Shown here in pieces: positions 2,676-56,040 of a stretch of DNA of 64,000 nucleotides. The notes under the pieces were generated by a model. That model was given only the letters and a program-made list of their open reading frames with translations. It was not told the origin of the DNA and did no database searches. Positions within the stretch are counted from its first letter, which is position 1, and each line of letters begins with the position of its first letter. Location: the IMG/VR virus record IMGVR_UViG_3300035520_000451. One strand, written 5' to 3'. The position numbers and the translations under genes were made by a program. This DNA comes from a virus. Taxonomy: Duplodnaviria; Heunggongvirae; Uroviricota; Caudoviricetes.

Positions 2676-2899
2676 ACTACTTTATATTCTTGATTTTTAA
2701 CTTCCCATCCCTCTAAATCAGTTCCAGATATACTAATACCTCTAGATTGTAAAAATTTCATTAAAGTATTTATTACATTCTTAGGAGTTTGAATATCTTG
2801 TTTATATCTTTCTAAAAATTCTTCATCAGATTCTCCTTCGTTTTGCTCAAAATACAGAGTTCTAGACATAGTTAAATCTATTTGAATTCCTTTATACAT
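2672..2899 (-). CDS. hypothetical protein
   Basis: ORF. Confidence 0.4.
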   Translation of the reverse strand: MYKGIQIDLTMSRTLYFEQNEGESDEEFLERYKQDIQTPKNVINTLMKFLQSRGISISGTDLEGWEVKNQEYKVV

Positions 2900-2901
2900 A
2901 A

Positions 2902-3147
2902 TTAAAATTTAATTTCCATTTTACGTTGTGCTTCTATATCATCTCCGATACTTTGAGGTTTTACATCTTTAAGTAATTCTGGATCTATATTCCAATCTGG
3001 AATTTCTGTAGGTAATGGATAATCAGCATCCTGAATATCTATAATTAAATCAAGTGCTTCTAAAGCAGCCTCTTTGTATTCTTGATAAATAATAGTACTA
3101 ATTAAATCCCTAACCTTAGTGATTACTTCTTTTTTAGTAAATAACAT
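2902..3147 (-). CDS. hypothetical protein
   Basis: ORF. Confidence 0.4.
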   Translation of the reverse strand: MLFTKKEVITKVRDLISTIIYQEYKEAALEALDLIIDIQDADYPLPTEIPDWNIDPELLKDVKPQSIGDDIEAQRKMEIKF

Positions 3148-3149
3148 AA

Positions 3150-3332
3150 TTAAAATGAGTCTATATCAGTTATATCATAATCTTTGTCATCGTCCACAGA
3201 AGCTGTAGTGATAGCTCCTACTCCAGGTAGTAATTTGTCTGCCACAGTAATACCTTTATCAGGAAATTGTTTATGAAGCTTAATAATTGCATCCAATTGT
3301 GCTACCGTTAAATAAATTTTACTTTCCATCAA
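3150..3332 (-). CDS. hypothetical protein
   Basis: ORF. Confidence 0.35.
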   Translation of the reverse strand: MMESKIYLTVAQLDAIIKLHKQFPDKGITVADKLLPGVGAITTASVDDDKDYDITDIDSF

Positions 3333-3723
3333 TTAGTTCTGCTAATTTTTTACACATATAATTAAGCATAGATTCATCAGTAAGTTTATGGGTAGCACTG
3401 TCATTATCCACCACTTCTTGCAGCAAGTCTTCTATACCTTTAATTATTTCCTTTAACTTCGGTTCATCTACAAAAGATTCTTTGTAGTTAACCTTTTGGC
3501 TGAAATCATCAAGTATTCTTTTTATATCCGATATACCATCAATAGACCAGTGACCTCCTTCTGGCAAACTTATTCTTATAAAAGGAGATACTCCATTATT
3601 TTCAGTTTCTAATTGAATGGTTTGCCAATTATCATCATCTTCACAGCAATCTCCAGGTTGGGTATATTGAGCTATTACCTTTTCAACCTCTAAACCTTCA
3701 TATTTATTCTGAAAATCAATCAT
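3319..3723 (-). CDS. hypothetical acidic protein
   Basis: ORF. Confidence 0.4.
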   Translation of the reverse strand: MIDFQNKYEGLEVEKVIAQYTQPGDCCEDDDNWQTIQLETENNGVSPFIRISLPEGGHWSIDGISDIKRILDDFSQKVNYKESFVDEPKLKEIIKGIEDLLQEVVDNDSATHKLTDESMLNYMCKKLAELIDGK

Positions 3724-3958
3724 AATTTAAATTATTTTATGTTCTTGTAACCATGTAACTCTTGCAAAGTAAGCCTTATTACCATACTCGCTTTGTAATA
3801 TTGAACTATCCACAAAGAAACAATTCTCTAAGAAACCTTCTTTAGTCATTAATATTCCTTTTGGGTCATTAACAGGAACAAATAAATCACAATTATTTAA
3901 GTTCATTTTTATGTTTTGTTAAATTGTTGTAGTAGGTAAATAATATTCATTTAAAACC

Positions 3959-4612
3959 TTAAGATTTGCGCCAAGCCTCTAAGAAATCAAATTTAGATAT
4001 TCTTTCCATATGTCCCAGATAATCCCGTGCACTACACACATAATCTGGGGTGATTAATTCAAATTCTGGAGTAATAATTCTACATATTCGTTCATATTCT
4101 TTACCAGCATAATCAAACTTTTGAATATAAAGTCTATACTTTTCAACCTTTGGTAAATAGGGTAAAGTTATTGGAAAGTTTTTATTTAACCAATCCCTAA
4201 ATACTGAATTTATAGGTTCTTCTATTTCAGGATATGATATATTTACACAAATAGCTCTTTTAAAATCTTCGTATTCTATAGTACCATCCTCATACTCATA
4301 TTTAGTTACGGGATAATCTCTAATGCAGGGAGTTTCAAACTTTATACCATCTCTAGGAGATATAAATTTATCATCCTCACAAAAATCCGATTCTGTAATA
4401 GGGCTTAATGGTAAATGCAGTAATAGCCGCCGCAATATATTAACCATTCTAACTTTTGTAAAACTAGAAGGGCCGATTATAAAGCTATCGGTTATTTCTT
4501 CATATGCGTTTAAAACCATTTTATAAATATCTTCTGCATGTGCATCAGTTGATTTATTATATGTAATAGCTTTAATTACCTCTAATTCTGCCCATTGCTT
4601 ATTAGTAGCCAT
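3959..4612 (-). CDS. hypothetical protein
   Basis: 217-aa ORF. Confidence 0.45.
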   Translation of the reverse strand: MATNKQWAELEVIKAITYNKSTDAHAEDIYKMVLNAYEEITDSFIIGPSSFTKVRMVNILRRLLLHLPLSPITESDFCEDDKFISPRDGIKFETPCIRDYPVTKYEYEDGTIEYEDFKRAICVNISYPEIEEPINSVFRDWLNKNFPITLPYLPKVEKYRLYIQKFDYAGKEYERICRIITPEFELITPDYVCSARDYLGHMERISKFDFLEAWRKS

Positions 4613-5153
4613 TTTCAGTCTCTATATTTTTTACATTATTAAATATAATATCTTCTCTAGTCCAATATTTAGGAATTTTTTGAAGTCTTTCTACATTATA
4701 CCATAAATAGAGCATCTGACCCTCTCCAATTTCATTCCAAGCGGTTTCAACTTGCACCGAGTTAGATTCAGAATCTACTTTAGTAACTTTACCTATGTAA
4801 TCAAACGTATCACTACTATGTATAGGTTTTACAACTACTGTATCGCCAATTTTAATTTTAGTGCGATCTAGAATTTCATTTTCTAAGTATAATTCAAAAT
4901 CCTTATACCATTCCTGTAGGATAGCCTCATAAGGAGAATCCTTATATCCAAGTCTTTCTATAAAAGATAAAACACTGAATTTAAATCCAGAACGCTCTTC
5001 AAGGTAGAATACAGTAGGATGACTAATAAGTATGGATAAAATATTTCTACTAAAAAATAAACCATTCTTTATATAGGAGAAAAGTGAATTTCCCCAGCGT
5101 TTAAAATCTATTTCATAAGTATGATTATCAATTGTATATTTCATGTTAAGCAC
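4602..5153 (-). CDS. hypothetical protein
   Basis: 183-aa ORF; a ~50-aa TM peptide ORF is readable just upstream (about 5148-5297). Confidence 0.45.
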   Translation of the reverse strand: MLNMKYTIDNHTYEIDFKRWGNSLFSYIKNGLFFSRNILSILISHPTVFYLEERSGFKFSVLSFIERLGYKDSPYEAILQEWYKDFELYLENEILDRTKIKIGDTVVVKPIHSSDTFDYIGKVTKVDSESNSVQVETAWNEIGEGQMLYLWYNVERLQKIPKYWTREDIIFNNVKNIETENGY

Positions 5154-5388
5154 ATTAAAATTATTAAAATATATAAAACTAATATTGTAATGAAAGTTCC
5201 TATAGACTGAAGATATTCTCCTTTATATATACTATAAAGAAGATCTCCCGTTATAAGTAAAGCTACGATTATATACCCGGATAACAATCCTACCATATAT
5301 TACTGAAAATTATTATCAACCAAAATATTATACTACTTATAAATATAATAATAAAAAAGATAATTAAAAGATTTGCTAACATAAATTT

Positions 5389-6333
5389 TTAATGAATCCA
5401 GTGATCACTTATAGTTTTATCAGCTCCTAAAAATACATTCGGACAAAAAGGTTTTCCTCCTGCAATCATACATTTGACTAATATATCTCCAATATATTCT
5501 GCCATATCTTCTGGGCACTCTAGATTAAATTCATCATGTGCTACTACACATATTTTGACTACATTAAGTAAATTATTATCTTTTATCCAATTAAATAGTT
5601 TAATTGCAGATAATTTGAAAGCGCAGGCCCCACGATTTTGTATTCTGTAGTTTATGGATTGCTTTTCACAGTCTGATTTCCGACTAAGATAATGACTAAC
5701 ATTTCTAACAGTGTCACAATGTGGAGATTCTATTTTCATTTCTTGATAATATTGCCAATATTCAGGATCTTTACATTTCTCATGCATTTGTATAATCCAA
5801 TCTGCATCATAAATATGGGCTCTATGCTTTAGTATAGAGTTCATTAAGATATATCCTTTTTCCATTACATTTTGCCTACAATACTCTTGATATTGAGCTA
5901 CTCCTGGAAAACCCCTCATAAAATCAGAATATATCTTTTCTGCAGCTCGCAACGGAATACCTTTATTATTAGCTATAGTTTTAGCATCCCCGCCATAATT
6001 AACTGAAAACTCAATTCCTTTTGCATCCTGTCTTTGATCGTGATATAGTTCATTTATATCTTCTATTTTAGTGTCTCTGGGAATTATATTAGGATAAGAC
6101 ATATAGGCAACCAAACTATGAACATCTCCACATCCAGATTCAAATAATTCTACCATAGCTTTATCTTTAGAAACAGATGCAATAATTCTACTTTCTTGAC
6201 TTTGGTAATCACAAGAAATCCATTTATTACCTTTTTCTGAAGTAAAACATGCTCTAGTTATTTTATCATGTGGTAAATTCTGTTGGTTTAATTTATACTG
6301 ACCACCACCACTAGATACTCGCAACATTTCCAT
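5389..6333 (-). CDS. family-A DNA polymerase, C-terminal part (polymerase motifs A, B, C)
   Basis: Motif A DYQSQESRIIA (DYSQIELR-like), motif B RQDAKGIEFSVNYGG (RxxxKxxxFGxxYG), motif C VVAHDEF (HDE); start MEMLRVSS aligns to Pol I RLSSTDPNLQNIP. Confidence 0.8.
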   Translation of the reverse strand: MEMLRVSSGGGQYKLNQQNLPHDKITRACFTSEKGNKWISCDYQSQESRIIASVSKDKAMVELFESGCGDVHSLVAYMSYPNIIPRDTKIEDINELYHDQRQDAKGIEFSVNYGGDAKTIANNKGIPLRAAEKIYSDFMRGFPGVAQYQEYCRQNVMEKGYILMNSILKHRAHIYDADWIIQMHEKCKDPEYWQYYQEMKIESPHCDTVRNVSHYLSRKSDCEKQSINYRIQNRGACAFKLSAIKLFNWIKDNNLLNVVKICVVAHDEFNLECPEDMAEYIGDILVKCMIAGGKPFCPNVFLGADKTISDHWIH

Positions 6334-6368
6334 GCCGGACTATACCTCAACCTTATAACAATTACTTA

Positions 6369-7187
6369 TTACTTAGGTTCTCCGTTTCTAGTCTCTGCAC
6401 CTTCCTCAATATTAAGGCTTGGCTCAGTCTTCTGGTTTTCCCTCCCATTAACTGAATTTACGGAGTTACACTTAGCAAATTTCTCTACTAAGGGGCCGAA
6501 TTTTTCTTTCTTTCTAGACAGAAAGAAAGAGGAGTCTTTATATAAATTACAATATATTTTATATATATGTTCACCTTTAGTTACATATATATTATACCAA
6601 TGTCCACTATCTGTATTATATTCTTGTATATTTGGAGAGATATTCTCTTTTTCTAAAAACTTCTTAACTTGATTAATAAAATTAATACTTCCAGAAGTAA
6701 TAGTAAATTTAAAACAGCACTCATATCTTTTATCTTTAGTAATACTACCATCTCCATCAAAAATTCCTAATAATATATTCCAATTTATATATGGAAGCAT
6801 TAGTATGTTAGATTTTCTTGGCACTATACCATATTCAGATAAAAAGTTAACTATTTCTTTATTTTTATACTTAATATTATAATAGACATTGCCATTAACT
6901 TTAGATTTTCTTGAATTAATATTACATCGAAAACCTAAAAATTTATTATAATTTTCTATTAATTCTAAATCTTTAACTTCTAAAGCTGTACAAGTATCAA
7001 CAATACAACCATCCGAGGCTAGTATTCCAATAAAATAGTCAAATTCTGGACTGCCTATTTTATCTGTCCATGCTTGTAACGGAACAATAGCTTTCGATTT
7101 ATAAGTTCGATTAAGGGCAGTTTTTCTTAAAACAATCCCCTTATCTTTTAATTTATTTCTAATTTGATACTTAGAACAATTAAACAT
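6369..7187 (-). CDS. LAGLIDADG homing endonuclease (two-motif)
   Basis: Two LAGLIDADG-like motifs: FIGILASDGCI and LGIFDGDGSI; inserted between the two DNA polymerase parts. Confidence 0.8.
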   Translation of the reverse strand: MFNCSKYQIRNKLKDKGIVLRKTALNRTYKSKAIVPLQAWTDKIGSPEFDYFIGILASDGCIVDTCTALEVKDLELIENYNKFLGFRCNINSRKSKVNGNVYYNIKYKNKEIVNFLSEYGIVPRKSNILMLPYINWNILLGIFDGDGSITKDKRYECCFKFTITSGSINFINQVKKFLEKENISPNIQEYNTDSGHWYNIYVTKGEHIYKIYCNLYKDSSFFLSRKKEKFGPLVEKFAKCNSVNSVNGRENQKTEPSLNIEEGAETRNGEPK

Positions 7188-7377
7188 AACTGCTAATTCT
7201 CCAGTATCTTTACCTGAGTTATACTCAGATACTAAATTTTCTATTTCCTACTCAGTCCATTTTTTAATCATAATACATATATTTAATTTAAATTTATTAT
7301 ATGCAAATATAATAATTATTTAGGACAGATTAAAATAGTTAATACCTTAGAAATAAAATTAATAGAAAAATTGTAAT

Positions 7378-8682
7378 TTATGGAAATTTTTCACCTGTAT
7401 CTGTTCCAATAGAATGTAGATCAACATGAATTCTTCCAGTTACTGGATTAATAGCGTCTAACCAGTTTTGACCATAAGTAGATACAACTTTTGAGGCGGC
7501 TTGATACTTTAAAAATATAGCAAGAATAGGAAATTTATCAACTTGAGAACTAATTAACGTAGCATTAATGGACTTCTTTTCTTTTTTAGTCTTTTTATCA
7601 AAAGTTGTAACTTGTATCCCAAGAAGTTCAAATAATTTTATAACTTGAGTAGAACTACTCCAATTTATAGTGCATTGTGGCCCTATGTCATTACATTCTT
7701 CAAATAAGGATAATTGTAAATTTATAGATACAAATTTTCCTTTTATTTTATATCTGTAACACTCCATAGAATCATCTTTTTCGGGAAATCGAATAAATCC
7801 TAATGCTACTAATTTTTCTTTTTCTTTTTTATTTTTAGCATATCTATATAAATATTCTTTAGCATCTAAATCTATAACAAATTTATTTAATTGTGACTCA
7901 GCTTCTCTTAAAGAAGCTTGATCATTTTTCATTTTTTCTTTCCATTTAGAAATATCCAAATGAACTCCACAGAATTTTACATATGCTAAAAATTTAATAA
8001 ATTCACATTCAAATTCTGCAGCCTTTAAAAGATCTTGAGTAGATAATTCTTCTAGTTGCTTTTCTTTTATAGGCTCTAGCCACATTACATCCCCAGCAGC
8101 ATATACTACAACATCTTCTGTTAAACCTTCATTTATAATTTTTCCTCGAACAGTTTTGTCAATATCTACTCCAAGTCTTCTTTTTGCAGTAGCTCGTAAA
8201 GAATAAGATAATTCCCAATGTTCTTTAGTTTTTTCGTCGGGAGCAATATATTCATAACAAGAAGGTTTAATTCCATATGTCTGTACTATTTCGGTAGCTA
8301 ATACTCTAGGATACCCTAAATATATTAATTGTTCTACTACCATAGTATCATAAACATGATTGGGCCAAATATTTTGTTTATATAAAAAGGTTAAATCAAA
8401 CATTATATTATGCCCCAAGAACACTCTATCAGACTCTAGATATTCTTTTAAAATAGACTTTTCAGAAGGACTTATAGTTCTCCAATCAAATACAACTTGA
8501 TTTTCAGTACACCCTAATTGCAAAGTAAGTAATTCCTTCGTAAAACAATCTAATCCTTTAGTTTCTGTATCTAATTGTACCTCTTTTAAAGGATATAAAA
8601 TATCCATAGCCTCCTTAAAGTCTACTTCTCTATATCTTTCTGGAGAATATAGTTTTTTATCTTTACTTACTAAATAAATCAT
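7378..8682 (-). CDS. family-A DNA polymerase, N-terminal part (3'-5' exonuclease domain and thumb)
   Basis: Exo I motif LDTETKGLD; C-terminus NPVTGRIHVDLHSIGTDTG aligns to Pol I NPKTGRLHTSYHQAVTATG immediately before the motif-A region. Confidence 0.8.
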   Translation of the reverse strand: MIYLVSKDKKLYSPERYREVDFKEAMDILYPLKEVQLDTETKGLDCFTKELLTLQLGCTENQVVFDWRTISPSEKSILKEYLESDRVFLGHNIMFDLTFLYKQNIWPNHVYDTMVVEQLIYLGYPRVLATEIVQTYGIKPSCYEYIAPDEKTKEHWELSYSLRATAKRRLGVDIDKTVRGKIINEGLTEDVVVYAAGDVMWLEPIKEKQLEELSTQDLLKAAEFECEFIKFLAYVKFCGVHLDISKWKEKMKNDQASLREAESQLNKFVIDLDAKEYLYRYAKNKKEKEKLVALGFIRFPEKDDSMECYRYKIKGKFVSINLQLSLFEECNDIGPQCTINWSSSTQVIKLFELLGIQVTTFDKKTKKEKKSINATLISSQVDKFPILAIFLKYQAASKVVSTYGQNWLDAINPVTGRIHVDLHSIGTDTGEKFP

Positions 8683-14387: not shown

Positions 14388-14798
14388 TTATAAAATACTT
14401 TTAGGAATAAATTTATTATTATCAATAACTAAATACTGTTTGTTTTCGAGACAATCACACGCATAAATTAATTGTCCATTATCTGCTACCATGCTTGTAA
14501 TTTCTTCTACAGGACTATGACCAATTACTTGATCATATCCATCTATATTACATGATATTAACTTAGTGGGTCGAATCCAAGTAATAGATTGTGTTACTGA
14601 TTCTCCACAGAAATCATAGCGATTATCAGGAATAAATCCAAATATTTCTGAAGGGGGTAATTTATTAACATCCTCTAGCTTAACTTTAGCACTTTGTTCT
14701 AACCAAACCTTAGAAACTCCAGCATGTGAAAAGATTATATTATTTTCAATATGTATCCATTGAGTATCTTCTAGAAATCTATCCTTCATAGCAGTCAT
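14388..14798 (-). CDS. calcineurin-like metallophosphoesterase, C-terminal part (interrupted gene)
   Basis: FSHAG and VIGHSPVE (GHxx) motifs; continues the N-terminal part at 15889..16113 across an HE-containing insertion. Confidence 0.55.
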   Translation of the reverse strand: MTAMKDRFLEDTQWIHIENNIIFSHAGVSKVWLEQSAKVKLEDVNKLPPSEIFGFIPDNRYDFCGESVTQSITWIRPTKLISCNIDGYDQVIGHSPVEEITSMVADNGQLIYACDCLENKQYLVIDNNKFIPKSIL

Positions 14799-14916
14799 AT
14801 GTTTAGCTACATATGAATCATATCCAGAACATTCACCCCAACTATATCCAAGTTCTTGATTATCCTTTTTGTTTAGATTAATTCGTTAAATTAATCCCAA
14901 TTTTAACGCTGCAACT

Positions 14917-15825
14917 TCATTTTGTTGCAGAACTGACTATATCTTCATCCTTCTCTTTTACAGAGTTAGGAGCCTCGCATTTCGAATCACTTGATTCTAC
15001 TCCCATTTCAGGGATAGTCGATGAACCTTCAACAGATATATTATCTGAAGCTTGGCTGCTGATTATCATCTCAGACGTTCCAGCAATTAACGAGGTGTCC
15101 TCTAAGGATTTCTCCTTAGACGCACAAAATATTTGTTCAAATTTTAATTTTTTTTCATTACACCAAATAGGTGATTTAGAATACATATATTCATACAAAT
15201 TTCGCATTTGTTTTCTACCAGAATATTCCATTGTGCAAACTTTATCACACGTAGGAGTGTTAGGATTCTTCGCTTTACTAAAATTTAATTTAGTTTTTTT
15301 AGAAACAATACCCTGTTGAATTAAAAAATCCTGTAAAGAACTTATAAATTCAGAATTGCCAGTAAAAGTAAATTTTACATTATGAACTATTCTATTTCTA
15401 TATTCTCCAGGCTTCTTTTCATTTTTTACAGTCATTACTTTACGTTTACCGTTCCAAACACAACCATCCCCGTCAAAATATCCTAAAATAAAAGAAGACA
15501 TTAATTCAATAGGAATAAAAGTTGGAAAAGTAAGAGTTAAAGATTTATTGCGGATTGCTCCTAGTTTTATCAAATCGGAACATAATTTTACACTATTAAA
15601 AGTAAGTCTATAAATATTGGGACTGTAACTCTTTATAGGATATTCGGAATTTAATGCTTTATTAATTTTTTCTAATATATCAATTCTTTCACCTAATTGA
15701 TCTAATTCTAGACAATCTTCTCGATTATACCCATCTGCATATATAAAGCCTAATATATATGCTTGTTCATGAGTTTTTAACTCATTAAAATAATTTTCAT
15801 TAAAATAGTATTTTCTAGTACTCAT
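14917..15825 (-). CDS. LAGLIDADG homing endonuclease
   Basis: ILGFIYADGY and ILGYFDGDGCV motifs. Confidence 0.8.
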   Translation of the reverse strand: MSTRKYYFNENYFNELKTHEQAYILGFIYADGYNREDCLELDQLGERIDILEKINKALNSEYPIKSYSPNIYRLTFNSVKLCSDLIKLGAIRNKSLTLTFPTFIPIELMSSFILGYFDGDGCVWNGKRKVMTVKNEKKPGEYRNRIVHNVKFTFTGNSEFISSLQDFLIQQGIVSKKTKLNFSKAKNPNTPTCDKVCTMEYSGRKQMRNLYEYMYSKSPIWCNEKKLKFEQIFCASKEKSLEDTSLIAGTSEMIISSQASDNISVEGSSTIPEMGVESSDSKCEAPNSVKEKDEDIVSSATK

Positions 15826-15888
15826 ATATATTTGAATTTTATTATTACAAATATAATATGATTACCTCAGATTGCCAATTAAAAATTT

Positions 15889-16113
15889 TTAAAATTTGTT
15901 AATTTTATGGTTTCCTCGTAGAAGTATTACTTTGTCAGGATTATTTTCTTTATATGTTAGGATCTCTTTTAAATTTTCTATTTGTGTTTCTGATGAAATA
16001 CCATAATGGGTAGTTACATAATCTCCAAGAAATATTACCTTATCTGGATGCTCTATTTCTAGAATTTTCTTCCATATAGTTCTGCCGTGTATGTCTCCTA
16101 AAACTACTATCAT
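15889..16113 (-). CDS. calcineurin-like metallophosphoesterase, N-terminal part (lambda-PPase-like motifs I-III)
   Basis: VVLGDIHGR (GDxHG), FLGDYV (GDxxD), LLRGNHK (GNH[DE]); ORF stops 4 codons after GNH. Confidence 0.6.
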   Translation of the reverse strand: MIVVLGDIHGRTIWKKILEIEHPDKVIFLGDYVTTHYGISSETQIENLKEILTYKENNPDKVILLRGNHKINKF

Positions 16114-16370: not shown

Positions 16371-16883
16371 TTAATATTTCTTTAATACTAAATGATATTG
16401 TGCTAAAGATTCTTTAACATCTATAATTCTTTGATTGCTTGAACCTCTAAAAGGTAATGATACATCTCTATCTTCTAAATAAAATTCCCCATCTATTAAA
16501 ATATCTATATTACACAATACTGTATGCCAATTAAAGTTTTTAAGAATCTGTTCTATTGTATATCCTGTGTAAATCCAAATATCTTTAGTTGGAAATTTTT
16601 CTCTTATCTCAAGTATAAGATTTTCTAACTCTTGTGCATATTTAGAATTATCGAGTTTTATAGGTTCTCCACCAGAAAATGTTATACCTTTAATATAAGG
16701 TAATTCAAGAATTTTAAATAATTGCTTCTTAGTTTCTTCTGTAAAAGGTTTTCCATTATTTTCAATCCACGATTCTGGATTATGACACCCTATACAATGA
16801 TGCGGACACCCAGCAACCCAAAGAGTTACTCGACATCCGCATCCGTTATTAATATCAGGATAAGTTATTTTAAGATAGTTCAT
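16371..16883 (-). CDS. nrdG: anaerobic ribonucleotide reductase activating protein (radical SAM)
   Basis: GCGCRVTLWVAGCPHHCIGCHNPESW radical-SAM cysteine cluster, 170 aa. Confidence 0.85.
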   Translation of the reverse strand: MNYLKITYPDINNGCGCRVTLWVAGCPHHCIGCHNPESWIENNGKPFTEETKKQLFKILELPYIKGITFSGGEPIKLDNSKYAQELENLILEIREKFPTKDIWIYTGYTIEQILKNFNWHTVLCNIDILIDGEFYLEDRDVSLPFRGSSNQRIIDVKESLAQYHLVLKKY

Positions 16884-17051: not shown

Positions 17052-18065
17052 TTATAATTCTTTTATATGTTTAACTCGTTGTTCGACCTCCTGTTGCTTA
17101 CCAACGTTAAATGACGTCTTGTAGTCTCCGGTAAGGTAGCCTGTTACACGACGTAATCGTTTGATATTTTTACTACCGCACATAGGACAAGTATCATTCA
17201 ATTCATCAATATAACCACAGTCTTGACAAGAATCATTTGGTACATTAATGGCAAAGTATGGAATATCATGATCCATTGCATAATTAACAATCTCTTCAAT
17301 AGCTTCTGGATTATGCTTAGTAGAAGCAGGTAATTCAACATAAGTTATACAACCTGCACTACTGAAACCAGTAAGCTGTGATTCAATTTCAATTTTCTCA
17401 AATGGAGTGCATTCATGCCATACAGGTACGTGCATACTATTAGTAAAGAACTCACGTTCTGTAATTCCTGGAACTTCGCCAAATTGCTTCTTAAATTTCT
17501 GCATTGCTGTATAACACAGATTTTCAGCAGGAGTATAGTAAACACCAAAATTAAGTTTATAAGCTTCTTTGAATTCACTACATCTCTTCTTAAAGAGAGC
17601 TTCTAATTCTTTAGCTTTATCCATAATTTCTGAATCAGTGTGGTCTTTACCGAAAATAATTCTCAAAGCTTCTGATAATCCTAATTGACCAATAGCTAAA
17701 GTACCATGTTTTAATGCTGAACGGATACCTTCTTCAGGTTTATATCCATACATTACATTATTTTGATACATAAACTTAGCGGATGCAGCATCTTGACTAC
17801 ATATCCAATCAAATCGTTCAATTAGCATATCTTTTGCTTCATGAATCTTAGTATCCAACAATTCAATAAATTTATTCCATACTAAATCCTTGATATTTAC
17901 ATCTGCATTATCCATATTAGATATAGCTTGCAGTTTAGAATTCATTGCAAGTGTAGGAAGTATGATTGTAACAGGACAGATATTACCTCTACCATCTTTA
18001 AGTTGACCAAAACCATTAATATCCCAGCCATTCGCAGTTCTACACATTTTACCCAATGTCACCAT
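17052..18065 (-). CDS. nrdD: anaerobic ribonucleotide reductase NrdD, exon 2 (glycyl-radical domain)
   Basis: C-terminal Zn ribbon CQDCGYIDELNDTCPMCG and glycyl radical motif RVTGYL; MCRTANG aligns to E. coli NrdD MGCRSFLG. Confidence 0.85.
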   Translation of the reverse strand: MVTLGKMCRTANGWDINGFGQLKDGRGNICPVTIILPTLAMNSKLQAISNMDNADVNIKDLVWNKFIELLDTKIHEAKDMLIERFDWICSQDAASAKFMYQNNVMYGYKPEEGIRSALKHGTLAIGQLGLSEALRIIFGKDHTDSEIMDKAKELEALFKKRCSEFKEAYKLNFGVYYTPAENLCYTAMQKFKKQFGEVPGITEREFFTNSMHVPVWHECTPFEKIEIESQLTGFSSAGCITYVELPASTKHNPEAIEEIVNYAMDHDIPYFAINVPNDSCQDCGYIDELNDTCPMCGSKNIKRLRRVTGYLTGDYKTSFNVGKQQEVEQRVKHIKEL

Positions 18066-18331
18066 CGGAACTGACTATATGTTCATTCCTTGTTTCACAA
18101 CAAAGAGTTGTCTCTTGTTTGGAATCGGTGCTTATCTCCGATCCTACAGGGCTACACTCATCACCCTTAGTCGATACACATTCTGTACTAATATAACTAT
18201 AAGTACATTAGCACGGTCTCATCTTATTATTTACACTGCAATTATATAATAAGACCTAACCGTTAGCTTCTACGCTTAAATAGAAACACCCCTTAAGCAG
18301 GGTTAAAGAGATTTTAAATGGGCTGCAGTTT
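18066..18331 (-). other. ORF-less group-I-like intron interrupting nrdD (approximate bounds)
   Basis: 266-nt GC-richer, stem-rich segment with no ORF between two halves of one NrdD reading frame. Confidence 0.55.
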
Positions 18332-19549
18332 TCACTTACCCATTGTACTGAAATAAGTGCGAGGATCGTTTATATCATACCCTTCATTACCAGACCAATC
18401 TACATTGGCATAATTAGGGTATAACCTAAGACTCGTAACCTTAGTAGCTTCTTGGAATATATCATAATTCGGATCTCCAGGTTTTCGATTAACACCTTTC
18501 ATTAATTGAACGATACAGCACGGAAAAATCGGAGTGCTATGATGGCTACCAATACCATTCTTACTTACTTCAAGTAAAGCTAGACTAATAAGACGTCCTT
18601 CAGGTTGTGTACAAGTACCATAATTAATAGAAGTAAAAGGTAATTGATTACCACTTCTACTTTGTAGAGTATTTAAATTATGATACATACCTTCAACAGC
18701 TTGATGAATTTCTCGTTTAGTCATATCCAAAGCATATTCATAAGAATTAGGATGTTCTTTATACAAACTATCTTCTATAGACAAATCTGTTTGATCGTAT
18801 TTTTCATTACGAATGTGATCAATATACTTCAATCCAGTTCTATAATGCTTATTAAAAGATAGTCTTACATAGGGAACCATAGTCCAATCTAAATGAGTTG
18901 CAGATACACCACCAAATTGTTGTAAACTTTGTACTTGGAATATTACAGCTAATAATTGAAATGCTGTATTAATACTCTTAGCAGGTCTAACATCAGTTTG
19001 CTTTAGCTTAAACCCGTTAGCAAGTAAGTCATCTACTGGTATGCTCAAACAGTTGTGCATCCCTACAGCGTAAGAATCCAAATCATGAATGTATATTTCA
19101 TTATTTTCATGATTATGCTTAGCCATTTCAGACATACAATAATTAAGAGCATAATCTTTAGTTACAACTCTACCTGCTTCGCCAATACGTCCACCAAATG
19201 AATGCTCATCAATATTAGCATTTTGATTTTTTACATTAGAAGCTTCAAGTTTAGATTTAATACCTTTAATGAGTTTATCTTTTTCAGCACGGATCATCTT
19301 ACGTTCTTCTCTATAAAGAATATAAGCTTTAGCTACATCTGAATATCCATAATCCATTAAAAGTTCTTCAACTTGATCTTGTATATCTTCAATACTGATA
19401 TTATCCCAAATCTGGACTTCATCTACAATTTCCTCAATAGTTTTAGGGATACTTTCGTACCCACATTCTTTAAATGCTGCTGAAACTGCATTTACAATTT
19501 TACTTCTATTAAACTCAGCGGGCTCACCGTTTCTTTTTGTTACTTTCAT
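18332..19549 (-). CDS. nrdD: anaerobic ribonucleotide reductase NrdD, exon 1 (ATP-cone plus barrel)
   Basis: N-terminal ATP cone (VTKRNGEPAEFNRSKI); C-terminus ends FSTMGK, continuing into exon 2. Confidence 0.85.
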   Translation of the reverse strand: MKVTKRNGEPAEFNRSKIVNAVSAAFKECGYESIPKTIEEIVDEVQIWDNISIEDIQDQVEELLMDYGYSDVAKAYILYREERKMIRAEKDKLIKGIKSKLEASNVKNQNANIDEHSFGGRIGEAGRVVTKDYALNYCMSEMAKHNHENNEIYIHDLDSYAVGMHNCLSIPVDDLLANGFKLKQTDVRPAKSINTAFQLLAVIFQVQSLQQFGGVSATHLDWTMVPYVRLSFNKHYRTGLKYIDHIRNEKYDQTDLSIEDSLYKEHPNSYEYALDMTKREIHQAVEGMYHNLNTLQSRSGNQLPFTSINYGTCTQPEGRLISLALLEVSKNGIGSHHSTPIFPCCIVQLMKGVNRKPGDPNYDIFQEATKVTSLRLYPNYANVDWSGNEGYDINDPRTYFSTMGK

Positions 19550-36966: not shown

Positions 36967-37893
36967 TTAGATTGTATCAACAATATAATTATTACATGAA
37001 AACGATCCGTTATATTTCTTTAACCACTGATTAACAGCAGATTTAGATATACATAAATACTCAGCAACTTCTTTTTGTTCTATTAATTGAATTACTTCCT
37101 CTCCATTTTTAGTAATCTTATATTTAAATGGAGATACATACTCGGAAATATTTATTTTATCAGTTAATGCCCAAAAGAACCTTTTATATTCAGTTTTATT
37201 TTTTATGGCTTTATCCAACGCGTGGTGGCTATTTTTATTAAGGAATTGAATTACACACTTTTTACTTTCAAATTCTCTTAATAAATTTCCATATAAATCA
37301 AACTGATATATTTTAATTCCAATAGATTCTTTTTTATAAGAATCTATTTTTTCTTCTTCTGTTTTATATTTCCATATAAAACCACAAGCTGATTTAGAAT
37401 TACCATTTAATACACTATCTATATTAGTTATTGATCCGTTTAATTCAGCTGCTGCTTCAGTAATAGAATCAAAATCTTTATATTTAGTGCCATCTAAATT
37501 AAATGCTGTTATCGGTTTTTTATGGGCATTTCCTGCTCTTGTAAGAGAATCAATACTTCTTTTTTCTTTAGTTATTACACCTTTTCCTCCTTTGTCAATA
37601 TTCATTAATTTATGTCCAAGGTTTTTATAATAACTAATCCAGTATTGCTCTCTAGCTTCCCAAGCTTCTTCTGAGCATTCGTCTATTTTCTCTATAATAA
37701 CTGAGCCCCCATTTTTATATACAGAGTATATCCATTTATGAACAGGTAATCCTCTTTTTTCTGGATGGTTAGCACAGTATTTATGTTGAGAAAATCTTCT
37801 ATCTAATTTTTGAGTAGTTACTCCTACATAACGAATTTCGTCTGGCGATATGTCCGATTTAAGAACATAAAATGAATAATTATTTTGTTGCAT
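36967..37893 (-). CDS. free-standing GIY-YIG homing endonuclease (Seg-like)
   Basis: FYVLKS...IRYVGVT (GIY-YIG), RFSQH, EQYWISYY; C-terminal NUMOD/IENR-like repeats (ITAFNLDGTKYKDFDSITEAA, CGFIWKY). Confidence 0.75.
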   Translation of the reverse strand: MQQNNYSFYVLKSDISPDEIRYVGVTTQKLDRRFSQHKYCANHPEKRGLPVHKWIYSVYKNGGSVIIEKIDECSEEAWEAREQYWISYYKNLGHKLMNIDKGGKGVITKEKRSIDSLTRAGNAHKKPITAFNLDGTKYKDFDSITEAAAELNGSITNIDSVLNGNSKSACGFIWKYKTEEEKIDSYKKESIGIKIYQFDLYGNLLREFESKKCVIQFLNKNSHHALDKAIKNKTEYKRFFWALTDKINISEYVSPFKYKITKNGEEVIQLIEQKEVAEYLCISKSAVNQWLKKYNGSFSCNNYIVDTI

Positions 37894-38753: not shown

Positions 38754-38999
38754 TTATCGTATAAGTTCTTTATCTTATACTTCTATATATTACTATATAG
38801 TTCAGACTATCTCTTTAACTTACAAATGTAAGCAGTGCCCCGCTTTCGTGGAAGATTTTATAGCTACAGCTCTACCTGTTTAGCATCACTTCTAGTCGTT
38901 AGGCGTTTTCCTTTATTTCTAAAGGATTTAGCACGGGATTGTCCTATTTAGGAGTTTCCCCGTTTAACGGAGTTTTAGGTGCGTCTAGCCCTAATTTGG
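38754..38999 (-). other. ORF-less group-I-like intron in the dnaB-like helicase gene (approximate bounds)
   Basis: About 245-nt GC-richer, hairpin-rich non-coding segment (e.g. GGTGCGTCTAGCCCTAATTTGGCGCACC) between two in-frame halves of one helicase. Confidence 0.55.
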
Positions 39000-39770
39000 C
39001 GCACCAGTATCTTTGGTATCATCAATTCTTAAGTTATTTAATCCTTCTTTTCTTCTATCCATAGAAGTAGAATTTCGATTTGCTTGCATAATTACAAGCG
39101 GACTAATTTTACATATATTTCTTAATGTTACCAAATAGGAGGATATTAAATCCATTTCTTCTTTTAGAGTACGTCCATTAGACCTTCTTACTAAACTTAA
39201 ATGGTCTATAACTACTAAATGAGTAAGTTCTTCATTACTAGGATGATATATTTTTCTACCATCTGTTTCTTCAAACTTGCCATCTTTTTCTAGTTGAGCC
39301 ATTAAGATTGTATATAAACTACTAGCATTTAATGCTTTATCATAAATAACTAAAATCTTTTCAACCTTCTGTAACCAAGGTAAACATTCTTGAGTTATTT
39401 TATAATAATCATCAGATAATTTATAATTACGTTTTCTAGAAAGAAGTTCTCCAGTAGACAACTCTATTCCATAAGTTTCAAAGATATACATACTTAATAT
39501 CTTAGCATAGATCATTTCGGCGCTCATCTCTAATGAAAAATAACTAACTTTAAAATTACCATCATCAAGATGTTCCATTAATGGTCTATATACATAAGAA
39601 TATAAAGCAAGTGAACTCTTACCACTACCAGTAGGACTAAATACTAAAGTATAAATTCCTCTAGATACTCCATCTATTATCTCTTCTAATTTTGGGAGAC
39701 CCATTGAGTATCCCCACTGCTTACCTAATCTACCTACTTCAATCTGATGAAGTAATGATTCTGCAATCAT
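38991..39770 (-). CDS. DnaB-like replicative helicase, exon 1 (RecA-like core: H1, H1a, H2)
   Basis: GLPKLEEIIDGVSRGIYTLVFSPTGSGKSS (DnaB loader-facing motif plus Walker A), Walker B VVIDHLSLV, ending DTKDTGA. Confidence 0.65.
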   Translation of the reverse strand: MIAESLLHQIEVGRLGKQWGYSMGLPKLEEIIDGVSRGIYTLVFSPTGSGKSSLALYSYVYRPLMEHLDDGNFKVSYFSLEMSAEMIYAKILSMYIFETYGIELSTGELLSRKRNYKLSDDYYKITQECLPWLQKVEKILVIYDKALNASSLYTILMAQLEKDGKFEETDGRKIYHPSNEELTHLVVIDHLSLVRRSNGRTLKEEMDLISSYLVTLRNICKISPLVIMQANRNSTSMDRRKEGLNNLRIDDTKDTGAPN

Positions 39771-47408: not shown

Positions 47409-47494
47409 TAGCGAAAGCGGGACTCGAACCCGCAAGATCATAATGATCGGGGGATTTTAAGTCCCCTATGTTTACCAACTTTCATCATTTCGCC
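47409..47494 (-). tRNA. tRNA-Leu (anticodon TAA), type II with long variable arm
   Basis: Hand-folded: acceptor GGCGAAA/TTTCGCT (1-72 G-U), D loop with GG, anticodon stem GGGGA/TCCCC, loop CTTAAAA, variable hairpin GATCATTATGATC, T arm GCGGGTTCGAGTCCCGC. Confidence 0.7.
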
Positions 47495-47538
47495 CCTTTC
47501 GTATTGCAATACTACGAAAAATTTATTTATTCCCCAAG

Positions 47539-47940
47539 TTAAAAAGTGTTAAAGATATATACTAATCTCTTTAAGTTTGGCTCAAAAATTTGATAAAAAT
47601 CTTCTCTAATTCTAGCAGTAGGAAATTTCAACCACGCATAATTAAACAAAGGATCGTATCTATCAATTTTGCATACTTCACAAGCATGATTTTTAGTAAT
47701 AGCACATGTTAAAATATCAAATTTATCATACTTTGACCAAATTTCTTTCCATGCTTGATAGATACCTAGAATTTCTTTAAAAAGTCTAATACTTTTTTCG
47801 TCGGTTGCAGAAATTGAAACTTTACTAATATCTCTTGGAAATTCCTGTTTTAAATCAGTGATAATATATTGGGGATTTCCATTTACTTCGTTATATTCTA
47901 ATTGAAGATTTTCTCCTTTAATCGTATATTCTTTATTCAT
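47539..47940 (-). CDS. hypothetical protein
   Basis: 133-aa ORF. Confidence 0.4.
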   Translation of the reverse strand: MNKEYTIKGENLQLEYNEVNGNPQYIITDLKQEFPRDISKVSISATDEKSIRLFKEILGIYQAWKEIWSKYDKFDILTCAITKNHACEVCKIDRYDPLFNYAWLKFPTARIREDFYQIFEPNLKRLVYIFNTF

Positions 47941-47985
47941 ATTTTAAACAAAAATGGAGGAACTATAAAAGTCCCTCCAGTATAA

Positions 47986-49914
47986 TTATTTAGTACTTCC
48001 AAACACTTTCTTAACAGTATCTGCAATAGGCAAATTACCAAGAATATCCATTGCAGGACTGAGATTCTTAGCCATATTAGACATAAAGTTACCAGCAGTA
48101 TTTTCACCACCATAAACAGTAACTTGACCAAGCTGAATATGCTCATATATCTTAGCTTGTGCTGTAGCAATATCTGCTAATTGATCTACTGTTTTATAAT
48201 TTACAACAAGTTCAGGAGTCAATCCAGCTTCAATCATTTGCTTAACAGCAAGCGCAGGAGCCATCTCAATAGCTTGTACCTTATCTGCCTCAGCCATTAA
48301 AGAAGCTCTTTTACCCTCTGCTTCTGCTAAAAGTTTCTTTTTAGTACCCTCTGCTTCTGCTTCTAACTTAGTTTGAGTAGCATTTGCTTCAGCATAAGCT
48401 TTAGTTCGAATAGCTTCTGCTTCTGCCTGTGCTTCTAGAATAGCTTTTTGTTTAATCGCTTCAGCTTCAATACGAATTTTCTCCTTCTCAGTTTCAGCTG
48501 GAACAATAACTTCAGCATTCAATTTAGCTTGTTCTGCTAAAGCTTTAGCTTCGTTTACTTCTATTTGTTTCTCTTGTTCAATTTTAGCAATTGACATTTG
48601 AGCCTCTACTTTAGAAGTACCAGCAACTTTTATTGCTTCTGCTTCTGCTTTGGCTGCTTCTCCTTTAGCTTGTGCTACTTCAATAGTTGCGCGTTGCTCT
48701 GCTACTCCAGCTTTCTTATTAGCTTCTGCTGCTTTCTGTCTCTTAGTAGATTCATACTCTGCAACTTTAGCTTGCTGGTCATTAATTGCTTTTTGAGTTT
48801 CAGCTTCTTTTTCTTGCTGTGCTTTAGCAATTCTAATTTGTTTCTGAGCTTCTGCTTCTGCTTTTGCAGATTCTGCTTCTGAATTAGACTTGGCTACTGA
48901 CGCAATAGCTTCTGCTTTTCTAGCTGCTTTAGCTGATTCAGCTTCAGATTCTGCTTTAGCAACATTAGCTTCTTTAATCGCATCTGCTTCTGCTTGTGCA
49001 GTTATTGCTTTAGTTTTAGCATTAGCTACATTAGCAGCCTGTTCAGCTTGTTGTTCTGCGACTCCAGTAGTCTTAATCTTTTCAGCTTCTGCCAATTTAA
49101 TTTGCTTATCCTGATTAATTTCAGCTACTCTTACTTCCTGCTCTTGCTGAGTCTGAGCTACTTGAGTAGCACGCTCTTTTTCAGCACTAGCAACAGCAAT
49201 TTCCCTTTCCTTGTTAGTTTCGGCAATTTGAATTTGACCCTTCTTTTCTTCTTCTGCAATATCTGCTTCTGCTTGAGCTTGAGCTTTAGTGGCTGCTTTC
49301 TTACCTAAATTCTTAATATAATTTGCATCATCAGAAATATCTGCATTATTAATATTAATAATAGTGAAACCTACTTTATTAATTTCAGTTTCAATGTTCT
49401 CTTTTGCTTTACCTAAGAATTTACCGCGATCAGCATTAATTTCTTCAATGGTCATAGTAGCCATAAGACTACGCATTTCACCAATAAGAATATCCTTAAT
49501 TTGATTAGCAATTTCTTCTAATTCAGCATTTAAGAAACGACTAGCAGCATTTTGCATAAGCTCCTGAGTAGTACCAATACCAGTAGTTAATGTTACAGGA
49601 ATAGTTACTTTAATCATTTGGCTAGATACTCCAACTACAGAAGTTTGAATCTGTATAGGAGTTAAAGACATTTTTTGCCAATCTTGAATAATCGGAAATA
49701 CAAATGTACCTCCGCCATGAATAATTTTAGAAGGCAAAACAACTGTTTCGCTCTTGCCAGTTTCTGGATTAATCTGGGTTTTCTTTCCAGCTTTACCAAA
49801 TACTACAAGAATTTCATCACTTGCGCATCTACGATAACGCGACATTAGACCAATTACGGTCAACACTACAAGAACTACAAGAATTCCTGCAACAATAAAA
49901 CTAGTTTGTAACAT
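47986..49914 (-). CDS. SPFH/band-7 flotillin-like membrane protein with long Ala/Glu/Lys-rich coiled coil
   Basis: N-terminal TM, SPFH-like core, then about 300 aa of AKAEAEA-type repeats (flotillin YqiK/FloT-like architecture). Confidence 0.65.
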   Translation of the reverse strand: MLQTSFIVAGILVVLVVLTVIGLMSRYRRCASDEILVVFGKAGKKTQINPETGKSETVVLPSKIIHGGGTFVFPIIQDWQKMSLTPIQIQTSVVGVSSQMIKVTIPVTLTTGIGTTQELMQNAASRFLNAELEEIANQIKDILIGEMRSLMATMTIEEINADRGKFLGKAKENIETEINKVGFTIININNADISDDANYIKNLGKKAATKAQAQAEADIAEEEKKGQIQIAETNKEREIAVASAEKERATQVAQTQQEQEVRVAEINQDKQIKLAEAEKIKTTGVAEQQAEQAANVANAKTKAITAQAEADAIKEANVAKAESEAESAKAARKAEAIASVAKSNSEAESAKAEAEAQKQIRIAKAQQEKEAETQKAINDQQAKVAEYESTKRQKAAEANKKAGVAEQRATIEVAQAKGEAAKAEAEAIKVAGTSKVEAQMSIAKIEQEKQIEVNEAKALAEQAKLNAEVIVPAETEKEKIRIEAEAIKQKAILEAQAEAEAIRTKAYAEANATQTKLEAEAEGTKKKLLAEAEGKRASLMAEADKVQAIEMAPALAVKQMIEAGLTPELVVNYKTVDQLADIATAQAKIYEHIQLGQVTVYGGENTAGNFMSNMAKNLSPAMDILGNLPIADTVKKVFGSTK

Positions 49915-49925
49915 TTAAAAGTTTT

Positions 49926-50447
49926 TTAGATAAAATAAATACCATCCCTATAATTAAGAATAGTTCTGATGTCTCCGGCACTAACGGGATCTCGTGATAT
50001 ACAATTTATTTCACAAGAGCCATTTACGATACAAATACATTTATAAGGATCTGCCATTGTTAAATAAACGGTTACCTTAGTACCTATCAAGTCTTTTCCC
50101 GATTTAGAAACAGGTTCATAGTTTAATTTTAAAATAAATCTATAAATGTAATATAAAATAACTACAAATATTAAACCTATTGCAATAGCTATAATATTAT
50201 TAAGTAATGTAGTAGAATTTGTTAAAATAATCCACCCAGAATAACCCATTAAGAAATGAATTAGTCCTTTAAATGAACACAAATCACTTACATTAAAATC
50301 TATATTACCATCAAGATCAATATCAAGATCAATATCTCCTAGAGCTAAGGCAGCAATAAATTGTATTATAAAAGTACAATAGGAAAATATTCCTATTATG
50401 TAATATATGTCCATATTATTTTGTGTTAAAACAATATCCAAAACCAA
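49926..50447 (-). CDS. NfeD-like membrane protein (SPFH partner)
   Basis: N-terminal TM helices plus C-terminal beta-rich soluble domain (GTKVTVYL...), encoded immediately upstream of the flotillin-like gene as in nfeD-floT operons. Confidence 0.5.
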   Translation of the reverse strand: MVLDIVLTQNNMDIYYIIGIFSYCTFIIQFIAALALGDIDLDIDLDGNIDFNVSDLCSFKGLIHFLMGYSGWIILTNSTTLLNNIIAIAIGLIFVVILYYIYRFILKLNYEPVSKSGKDLIGTKVTVYLTMADPYKCICIVNGSCEINCISRDPVSAGDIRTILNYRDGIYFI

Positions 50448-50727
50448 GTCTAGTTGTTATATTGGAACTATACTCTTTTATCTTCTTCCGCAGTCTAGAA
50501 ATTGTAGTATCTACTGTTCTTAAAGATGTGGGGCTTTTCCAAATTTCTTTAATCAAAGTTCCCCTAGAATGTACATAATTTGGATGTTCTAATAAAAAAG
50601 TTAATAATTCATATTCCTTTTTAGAGAGGGGAATTTCTTCTTCATCAATTAAACATAACTTTCTATCAGAATCTATTGTTAATGTTTTGTATTGCATGGT
50701 AATTATAAATAATATTTCTAATTCCAC
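50416..50727 (-). CDS. stand-alone OmpR/PhoB-type winged-helix DNA-binding protein
   Basis: LSKKEYELLTFLLEHPNYVHSRGTLIKEIW...LRTVDTTISRLRKKI...TRLGFGYCF matches the trans_reg_C domain pattern; no receiver domain. Confidence 0.6.
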   Translation of the reverse strand: MELEILFIITMQYKTLTIDSDRKLCLIDEEEIPLSKKEYELLTFLLEHPNYVHSRGTLIKEIWKSPTSLRTVDTTISRLRKKIKEYSSNITTRLGFGYCFNTK

Positions 50728-51011
50728 ATCTGTTCTCGTATATAATCTTTTACTTTATGATGCGAACCTTCTTTTAAAAGTTCTTTAATTACATCTTGGC
50801 CTACCATAATATTAAAATAGCATTGAATTTCAGTTGCTAAATCATAATATGTTAAATCATTATACTTCCTAAGTGGACATCTAACAAGATGTAAATTTCT
50901 TAATACTCTTTCATAAATAGTATCGACACTATCCACTGTAAACTCAAATTCTTCATATTTATATAAACTTTTATCTTTTAAATCTAAAATCCTTAAGGTC
51001 GGATAAACCAC
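50718..51011 (-). CDS. hypothetical protein
   Basis: ORF. Confidence 0.4.
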   Translation of the reverse strand: MVYPTLRILDLKDKSLYKYEEFEFTVDSVDTIYERVLRNLHLVRCPLRKYNDLTYYDLATEIQCYFNIMVGQDVIKELLKEGSHHKVKDYIREQMWN

Positions 51012-51069
51012 ACATTAAGCTGATTTTTTAAGGTGGGACGCTCTAATTTGTTTTTCAAACCCACTGTAT

Positions 51070-52665: not shown

Positions 52666-52814
52666 TTAATTTTTACAGCTCAAAAAAGTATTAATGACGA
52701 TTGTCACTAATACTGTAAGGAATAAAACCAGATGGCATCATAGCATAAGGTGCATTCTCGAAATACCACTTAACGAATTTTTTGAGTCTTTTCATAATCT
52801 TTAATTTTAAAATG

Positions 52815-53324: not shown

Positions 53325-53341
53325 AATCTAAAATATTATTG

Positions 53342-53410
53342 TTTCCTTATTGGGATTCGAACCCAAAACTCAATACTATATTGCGCTTTATCCAGTTAAG
53401 CTATAAGGAA
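53342..53410 (-). tRNA. tRNA-like gene with aberrant anticodon arm (possible pseudo-tRNA)
   Basis: Acceptor TTCCTTA/TAAGGAA, D arm GCTT-AACTGGATA-AAGC, T arm TTGGGTTCGAATCCCAA all canonical, but the 18-nt anticodon region GCAATATAGTATTGAGTT cannot form a 5-7-5 arm; 69 nt total. Confidence 0.4.
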
Positions 53411-56037: not shown

Positions 56038-56040
56038 TTG

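Follow-up and report, generated by a model that had tools for sequence, protein, structure and literature searches.

A predicted IA2-like group I intron without an endonuclease gene precedes the catalytic cysteine codon of nrdD in a metagenomic phage

Several introns have been described in phage nrdD, the gene for the anaerobic (class III) ribonucleotide reductase. The nrdD (sunY) intron of T4 and its endonuclease I-TevII are well established (PMC2988022), Dwivedi et al. have already published a 'non-coding intron' that splits nrdD-a from nrdD-b in phage 949, whose nrdD-b has intein remnants (PMC3653736), and nrdD of gut jumbo phages is fragmented by group I introns whose splicing is backed by RNA reads (PMC12880540). 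A reductase gene can also be broken and remain active: nrdA of Aeromonas phage Aeh1 is split by mobE and is functional as separate polypeptides (PMC3653736). Here we analysed the nrdD locus of a metagenomic phage (Caudoviricetes; IMG/VR record IMGVR_UViG_3300035520_000451) in a stretch of 64,000 nucleotides (nt), the whole of which we call the window; all coordinates refer to it, and nrdD, its exons and its intron lie on the minus strand. An earlier sequence-only reading had taken two open reading frames (ORFs) here for the N- and C-terminal parts of one class III reductase and the 266 nt between them for a candidate group I intron, noting that self-splicing introns are established in nrdD of T4 and related phages. 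We reach the same view with other boundaries, and put at roughly 90% the probability that the insert is spliced out of the nrdD pre-mRNA as a group I (IA2-like) intron, so that one continuous anaerobic ribonucleotide reductase of 734 amino acids (aa) is encoded. It is a new member, in a metagenomic phage, of a family already known from other phages.

The upstream ORF (18332-19549, 405 aa) matches the Pfam ATP-cone (5.8e-22) and positions 2-249 of the NRDD profile (2.2e-62), and the downstream ORF (17052-18065, 337 aa) matches NRDD positions 264-562 (6.9e-78) plus Gly_radical. The profile segments are consecutive, thus the two ORFs are successive parts of one NrdD, as had been supposed. Joining Gly404 (GGU) to Cys405 (UGU) keeps the frame (...YFSTMG|CRTANGW...) and gives a 734-aa protein that aligns end to end, and gap-free across the junction, with the solved class III reductase 8p23 ('ATMGCRT', 3.2e-121); a second solved NrdD, 9d3x, reads 'PMGCRS' at the equivalent junction. 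The protein alignment, which the sequence-only reading had named as a way to reveal two truly separate subunits, speaks for one chain. Exon 1 spans 18338..19549 (codons 1-404), carries the ATP-cone and the N-terminal NrdD barrel, and ends ...YFSTMG with U18338 as its final base. Exon 2 spans 17052..18044 (codons 405-734), opens with the catalytic Cys405 (CRTANGW...) and contains the glycyl-radical motif RRVTGY with Gly706. Between them lies the intron (18045..18337), 293 nt from its first base A18337 to its terminal G18045. There is no sense-strand ORF of at least 30 aa between the two nrdD ORFs, so the description of the insert as ORF-less holds, but its length does not: 18066-18331 is only the gap from stop codon to ATG, and the intron also takes in the final K codon of the first ORF together with its stop, as well as the first seven codons (MVTLGKM) of the second. 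Two antisense ORFs (46 and 56 aa) in the insert were judged mechanical.

In an alignment with T4 NrdD, rebuilt from the genome record, Cys405 and Gly706 correspond to Cys290 (MGCR) and Gly580 (RxxG[YF]), the known thiyl-radical and glycyl-radical residues, respectively; the intron thus directly precedes the catalytic cysteine codon. Annotation should merge the two "NrdD-like" ORFs into one gene, join(19549..18338, 18044..17052) on the complement. The same correction applies to many records with two nrdD fragments, including the Lactococcus phage 949 group, the Audreyjarvisvirus AM phages and many metagenomic contigs.

The insert is GC-richer than its surroundings, as claimed, if modestly (0.376 for 18066-18331 and 0.375 for the intron, whereas the exons have 0.328 and 0.336 and the window as a whole 0.302). 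It is also full of stems, with a minimum free energy (MFE) of -79.7 kcal/mol compared to a shuffle mean of -63.1 (z = -3.75), and none of 200 dinucleotide shuffles folded as well.

An allele without the insert supports the junction. The NrdD P0001, encoded by contig L136, is 98% identical to the window protein over the shared parts and is uninterrupted at MG|C, where it reads ...PRTYFSTMGCRTANGWDING..., which is the predicted ligation (STMG-CRTANG). At the DNA level, the empty site of L136 is ACA ATG GGG TGT AGG ACA (empty-site DNA ACAATGGGGTGTAGGACA); an intron-less version of the window allele would read ACAATGGGTTGTAGAACT, and the predicted spliced junction of window nrdD is ...ACAAUGGGU-UGUAGAACU.... 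There is therefore a presence/absence polymorphism at a fixed site, with the nearby synonymous differences clustering at codons 396, 397, 400, 404, 406, 407 and 410. Comparing the window exons with L136, 82 codon differences are synonymous and 30 non-synonymous (38 and 7 in exon 2 alone), an excess which indicates that both exons are under purifying selection. The identical intron is found in two JGI metagenome contigs from separate samples (L131 and L133).

The intron contains the core elements of a group I ribozyme, and most of them covary across its relatives. The RNA of exon 1 ends ...UUC AGU ACA AUG GGU and continues into the intron as AAG UGA AAA CUG CAG CCC AUU. P1 (18344-18338 / 18323-18317) pairs AAUGGGU of the 5' exon with the internal guide GCCCAUU and places a U18338·G18323 wobble at the 5' splice site; this U·G is invariant in 11 of 11 family sequences, and the outermost P1 pair varies from A-U to G-C or U·G in step with the Thr/Cys codon of the exon. 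Within the P1 loop, two codons into the intron, is an in-frame UGA (18334-18332). The guide strand of P10, CUGCA (18328-18324), pairs with UGUAG at the start of exon 2 (18044-18040), which the terminal G18045 directly precedes; 96% of P10 cells are paired and one pair is changed on both sides across the family.

P1 is followed by UAAAA and then P3, without P2. P3 (UCUCUU/AAGAGA, 18311-18306 / 18116-18111) is 100% paired, five of its six pairs covary, and it appears in the unconstrained MFE fold. Two extra hairpins stand between P3 and J3/4 (GCUA, 18267-18264), namely P3.1 (18302-18290; 97.7% paired, 3/4 pairs covarying) and P3.2 (18285-18268; 88.7% paired, 5/5 covarying). The P4-P6 domain (18178..18263) consists of P4 (ACGGU/ACCGU, 18263-18259 / 18217-18213; 94.5% paired, two of five pairs compensatory), P5 (18254-18222), whose proximal pairs covary, P6 (GC/GU, 18212-18211 / 18179-18178) and a P6a hairpin (18207-18184) with a 12-nt loop. 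In the 3' half of the catalytic core (18073..18172), P7 (GACUA/UAGUC, 18172-18168 / 18077-18073) is invariant across the family and is accompanied by P7.1 (18167-18148), which has the conserved loop UGAUGAGUGUAG (100% paired, 4/4 pairs covarying), by P7.2 (18144-18122; 98.7% paired, 4/7 covarying), the 3' strand of P3, P8 with a GUGA loop (18105-18088) and J8/7 (AAUGAACAUA, 18087-18078). P3 and P7 cross to form the standard group I pseudoknot. A P9 hairpin, CCGAUG-GUGA-CAUUGG (18068-18053; 100% paired, five of six pairs covarying), and the tail GUAAAAUG, ending in the terminal G (18045), complete the intron. The unconstrained MFE fold recovers P3, P3.1, P3.2, P4, P5, P6a, P7.1, P7.2 and P8.

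We scored this structure, drawn from the window sequence, on a MAFFT alignment of 11 sequences, using 500 column shuffles and pairing partners slid by 1-3 columns as controls. The pairing holds in 87.2% of cells, compared to 74.4% in column shuffles (0/500 as high) and 34-43% in the slid controls, and 41 of the 78 pairs change on both sides, a number that no shuffle out of 500 reached. Two other drawings were considered and dropped. By inspection, an alternative P3 via GCUAAC just upstream of P4 finds no complementary partner in the 3' half, and a candidate in the P7.1 loop does not covary. P4 drawn as GGUC/GACC gave way to ACGGU/ACCGU, in which pairs switch in a compensatory way from G-C to A-U and from U-A to A-U.

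The IA2 subgroup in the classification of Michel and Westhof, which includes the introns of T4 td, nrdB and nrdD and that of Twort, is marked by P7.1 and P7.2 between P7 and the 3' strand of P3. The window intron has both hairpins in this position. It does not follow the standard IA2 5' layout P1-(P2)-P3-J3/4-P4, as P2 is absent and two covarying hairpins lie between P3 and J3/4. We describe it as IA2-like: judged from the modelled fold, it would work like an IA2 intron while departing from the standard layout.

The fold suggests how splicing could proceed. Once nrdD is transcribed from the minus strand, the intron would fold into the group I core and the guide would pair with the last seven exon bases (P1), setting U18338 in the U·G wobble. 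An exogenous guanosine bound in P7 would attack after U18338; the guide would then hold the first bases of exon 2 (P10), and the 3'-OH of U18338 would attack after G18045, joining GGU to UGU. We infer that the RNA could carry out these steps by itself. Unspliced RNA would yield only a 405-aa fragment, terminated at the UGA two codons into the intron, without the thiyl-radical cysteine and the glycyl-radical domain.

This last prediction bears on the idea that splicing needs a protein cofactor or particular conditions, so that the intron would be a switch on anaerobic deoxynucleotide triphosphate synthesis and not a neutral passenger. The site is the catalytic cysteine codon and unspliced RNA would give a dead enzyme; P3.1, P3.2 and the conserved P7.1 loop could serve as contact sites, and the early in-frame UGA resembles the situation in the T4 td intron, where translation and splicing are reported to be linked. 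We nevertheless find a switch improbable. Insertion at a catalytic codon is what homing into conserved DNA usually leaves behind and is no mark of regulation, and family members do not all have the early stop (relative L104 reads 15 codons into its intron).

The removal of a group I intron from nrdD, which we favour, is also backed by a family of homologous introns at the same site. Megablast of the nrdD locus against 50,697 phage records gave no match, and relatives were reached only by distant blastn and tblastn; the family itself was collected with IMG/VR pattern scans and with nhmmer profile hidden Markov models (HMMs) of the two intron halves, which ignore structure. Homologous introns occur at exactly ATGGGT|...G|TG[TC]AGA in at least four divergent NrdD lineages, on many IMG/VR contigs. 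Over the last 250 residues of exon 1, the host NrdDs of L104, L108 and L128 are 67-70% identical to that of the window (~69% for L108 and L128), and the host NrdD of L013 is 49% identical. E. coli/T4-like NrdDs with the sequence 'FPCMG|CRSFL', which are 28% identical, also carry the MG|C intron (L036, L056, L074 and L034), as do NrdDs reading 'SPMG|CRAFLSPW' (L050, L070, L015, L073 and L078). The window intron scores 2.7e-28 (5') and 8.2e-30 (3') against the half-HMMs, values that are not independent since it is in the seed, and members outside the seed (L050, L070, L034, L137 and L143) score 1e-12 to 1e-35. Family members are also present on large contigs in bacterial assemblies of Bacillota (L137-L140 and L143): Eubacterium segne BX4, Thomasclavelia cocleata DSM 1551, Konateibacter massiliensis and two Lachnospirales metagenome-assembled genomes (Lachnospiraceae/Lachnoclostridium).

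The window intron has no homing endonuclease gene, as the sequence-only reading had stated: it contains no sense-strand ORF of at least 30 aa, and its P6a loop is 12 nt long. In contrast, L014, L108 and L125-129, which have the same nrdD site and core and are the closest sequences to it (73-74% with the ORF removed, the L128 type being the closest at 74%), have a GIY-YIG ORF of some 215-235 codons inserted where P6a ends in its loop. The homing-endonuclease cycle runs through empty, endonuclease-bearing and endonuclease-free states, and endonuclease-free introns are expected to be lost eventually. All three states are found at this one site, which is empty in L136, endonuclease-bearing in the L128 type and endonuclease-free in the window, and the series offers a natural system for the study of endonuclease gain and loss. 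Our preferred reading is that the window intron belongs to a mobile family specific to nrdD, in which other introns have GIY-YIG in the P6a loop, and that its own ORF was either lost or never acquired. It would then spread only vertically, by recombination, or with an endonuclease acting in trans.

Two of the related ORFs have unusual codons. That of L108 contains three in-frame TGA codons at expected Trp positions (e.g. in the 'RW' of the GIY-YIG motif), suggesting that TGA may be read as Trp in this phage. The ORF of L125-129 has one in-frame TAG, identical in four contigs, and is either recoded or a pseudogene.

Several observations weigh against an intron that is active in splicing. The first is the response of the general Rfam model RF00028 (Intron_gpI), a check that the sequence-only reading had proposed. 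It gave a match of 21.2 bits (E = 0.0033), far short of the 50 bits of its gathering score, and this match appeared only when 501 nt were scanned locally; whole-window scans returned no match at the nrdD locus, and six homologous loci, including that of phage 949, gave no Intron_gpI match in Rfam E-value scans. The whole-window E-value scan also lost a 70-bit intron of the gathering scan and is therefore not a reliable negative. The covariation alignment, in turn, is anchored on the structure derived from the window, which biases the measure of cells paired toward it, and its 11 sequences amount to about six to eight lineages rather than 11 independent events. P6a and P8, both of which vary in length, are only 33% and 54% paired in the MAFFT alignment; the support for P6a is instead that its segments, when folded singly, form a hairpin in every family member despite their differing sequence. 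Finally, splicing of the window intron is itself predicted from sequence.

RF00028 aligns only the 3' part of the intron sensibly (J8/7, P7 and P9), and here the window sequence AUGAACAUAUAGUC is aligned to the J8/7-P7 consensus gAAGAUAUAGUC with high posterior probability. The same P7, GACUA/UAGUC, is found in the RF00028-aligned group I intron at window positions 38783-39040. We rejected the model's alignment of the 5' half, which puts the P6a hairpin as P1/P2, whereas covariation sets P1 at the exon boundary and P3 at 18311-18306. The miss is probably due to the absence of P2 and the insertion of P3.1 and P3.2. All of the family scores low, introns with an endonuclease gene and those of cultured Lactococcus phages among them, which reflects the model and not decay. 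Had failure to detect the group I core been made decisive, as the sequence-only reading envisaged, this near-failure would have led to the wrong rejection of an intron for which covarying core elements, the 98%-identical empty-site relative and a match to the T4 sunY core (E = 4e-10) all argue. That a standard covariance model misses the nrdD MG|C family at normal thresholds matters for counts of phage introns.

The same layout (P2 missing, P3 and P4 separated by two hairpins, P7.1 loop UGAUGAGUGUAG) recurs in many IMG/VR introns outside the nrdD MG|C site, and our literature search found no description of extra hairpins between P3 and P4, which is weak evidence of novelty. We therefore raise, tentatively and as a conjecture that we think has a minority chance of being right, a large phage group I subclass that lacks P2, has two hairpins between P3 and J3/4 and a nearly invariant 12-nt P7.1 loop UGAUGAGUGUAG, and to which RF00028 is mostly blind; one of its branches would have specialised on the boundary of the nrdD thiyl-radical Cys codon across divergent lineages. 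If this is true, intron censuses of phage and gut metagenomes based on RF00028 would undercount the subclass.

The score far below the Rfam threshold and the missing endonuclease, given that such introns are expected to be lost in the homing gain-and-loss model, would also fit a decayed intron that no longer splices and has left nrdD a pseudogene in the window phage. We think this very unlikely. No core pairing is broken in the window, where the U·G wobble, P7, J8/7 and the terminal G are all in place, purifying selection acts on both exons (82 synonymous and 30 non-synonymous differences from L136), the identical intron is present in contigs L131 and L133 from separate metagenome samples, and the low Rfam score applies family-wide. 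We give the least credence of all to a truly split gene, in which two polypeptides assemble into an active reductase without RNA splicing as in Aeh1 nrdA: split yet functional phage reductase genes are on record (PMC3653736), and the second ORF offers an ATG at 18065 and a further one immediately ahead of the Cys codon (18047-18045), but the break falls inside the MGCR motif, where Gly404 meets the catalytic Cys405, no Shine-Dalgarno-like sequence is seen by inspection ahead of either ATG, the MVTLGKM 'extension' corresponds to P9 and the 3' tail in an RNA that covaries, homologues have ACG or GUG in place of the terminal AUG so that this ATG is not conserved, and the 293 nt are kept as RNA structure across NrdD lineages that are only 28% identical in protein.

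The intron is not the only insertion in nrdD of this phage clade. Its members differ in what they carry: an intein-like insert occupies GMHN|C, a break lies close to the T4 site, an HNH intron sits 4 nt upstream of the window site, the MG|C intron is present, or an insert follows the glycyl-radical Gly-Tyr. This is another case of mobile elements, introns in particular, gathering at those codons of ribonucleotide reductase that are the most conserved and are essential for catalysis. The empty-site contig L136 (Logan SRR10148554, region 4001-7420) has an intein-like insert of ~298 aa between GMHN and CLSIP. It also has a ~340-nt non-coding insert directly after the glycyl-radical codons RRVTGY, where the ORF ends YN* and the frame picks up at ...LYLTGDYKTSFNIGKQQEVEQRVKHIKEL; this is likely another intron, at the other catalytic site. 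In L013 (6270-6350), the exon-1 alignment breaks at HDLDSYSVGMQNC|LARETKFITDKG; an intein seems to begin there, at the GM(H/Q)N|C position that is also occupied in L136. The IMG/VR contig L011 (3300008081_000200, 2766-4490) carries, together with the MG|C intron, a second interruption of ~900 nt after ...QAVEGLYHNLN, near the position of the T4 nrdD intron.

Elsewhere in the window, a Pfam search identifies a radical-SAM activase gene (nrdG-like, 16371-16883) downstream of nrdD. A group I intron on the minus strand at 38783-39040 (Rfam Intron_gpI, 70.3 bits) interrupts a DnaB_C-type helicase gene and has the standard P3-J3/4-P4 layout; the helicase ORF 38991-39770 ends ...DTGAPN* and the frame resumes at ...AAQDSEIIISIFNPHREK below ~38760. 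Some 900 nt downstream of it, on the same strand, is a free-standing GIY-YIG / NUMOD1 / HTH homing-endonuclease-like ORF (36967-37893, 308 aa). Another minus-strand group I intron lies near 14388-16113 (Intron_gpI, 67 bits for 14914-15144); it was detected in a local scan and missed by both whole-window scans, and it is preceded by a LAGLIDADG ORF (14917-15825). The gene that this intron appears to split encodes a metallophosphoesterase, with an N-terminal ORF (15889-16113) that stops just after the conserved GNH motif; ORF 14388-14798, without a Pfam match, is probably the C-terminal exon. Having two further group I introns at the Rfam threshold, the phage evidently supports such introns. Five tRNA genes, four of which were found in the Rfam gathering scan, are located at 47409-56113 (minus strand), and one of them (47409-47494) has a long variable arm.

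Comparison with the described nrdD introns places the window element in a known family, at a site other than that of T4. The core of the T4 sunY intron is homologous to the 3' half of the window intron (nhmmer E = 4e-10), with the same P7, J8/7 and P6 motifs, and it too runs from P1 through UAAAA to P3 without P2. However, the T4 intron lacks the two P3-P4 hairpins, and it is 1033 nt long (L005) and encodes the GIY-YIG endonuclease I-TevII, compared to 293 nt and no ORF in the window. The insertion sites, which the sequence-only reading had suggested comparing, do not coincide: T4 nrdD is split in codon 180 (...QAYE|YEVNTL), around residue 289 of the window protein, whereas the break in the window gene corresponds to T4 codons 289/290, ~115 codons further downstream.

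The nearest cultured relatives, the Thomasclavelia phages TR-TP1 and TR-TP2, have NrdDs that are 66% identical, and an intron also interrupts their STMGCR codons. From our reading of frame and sequence, this intron is ~950 nt long, contains an HNH ORF and lies 4 nt upstream of the window site (ACCAU|...G|GGGUUGU). In the TR-TP1 record (L001 4240-5200, PQ571309), nrdD is annotated as two genes flanking an HNH gene, and we read the intron boundaries as ACCAU|AAAC ... AUUG|GGGUUGUAGA. The half-HMMs of our family do not detect the TR-TP1/TR-TP2 intron, which thus belongs to a different intron lineage.

The closest described counterparts are the introns of Lactococcus phage 949 and the Audreyjarvisvirus AM phages, which are inserted at the same point as that of the window (ATGGGT|intron|TGY AGA, MG|CR), also without an ORF, and leave two nrdD ORFs ~320 nt apart. 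They are homologous to it by blastn (68-71% over up to 186 nt), match both half-HMMs strongly, and share the P3, P3.1, P3.2, P7.1 and P9 pairings with compensatory changes. The 949 intron is ~67% identical to the window intron over the aligned core, but at 320-326 nt it is the longer of the two, has one more hairpin following P7.1 and ends in a more extended 3' tail, and its host NrdD belongs to a different lineage (CRSYNN... compared to CRTANGW... in the window).

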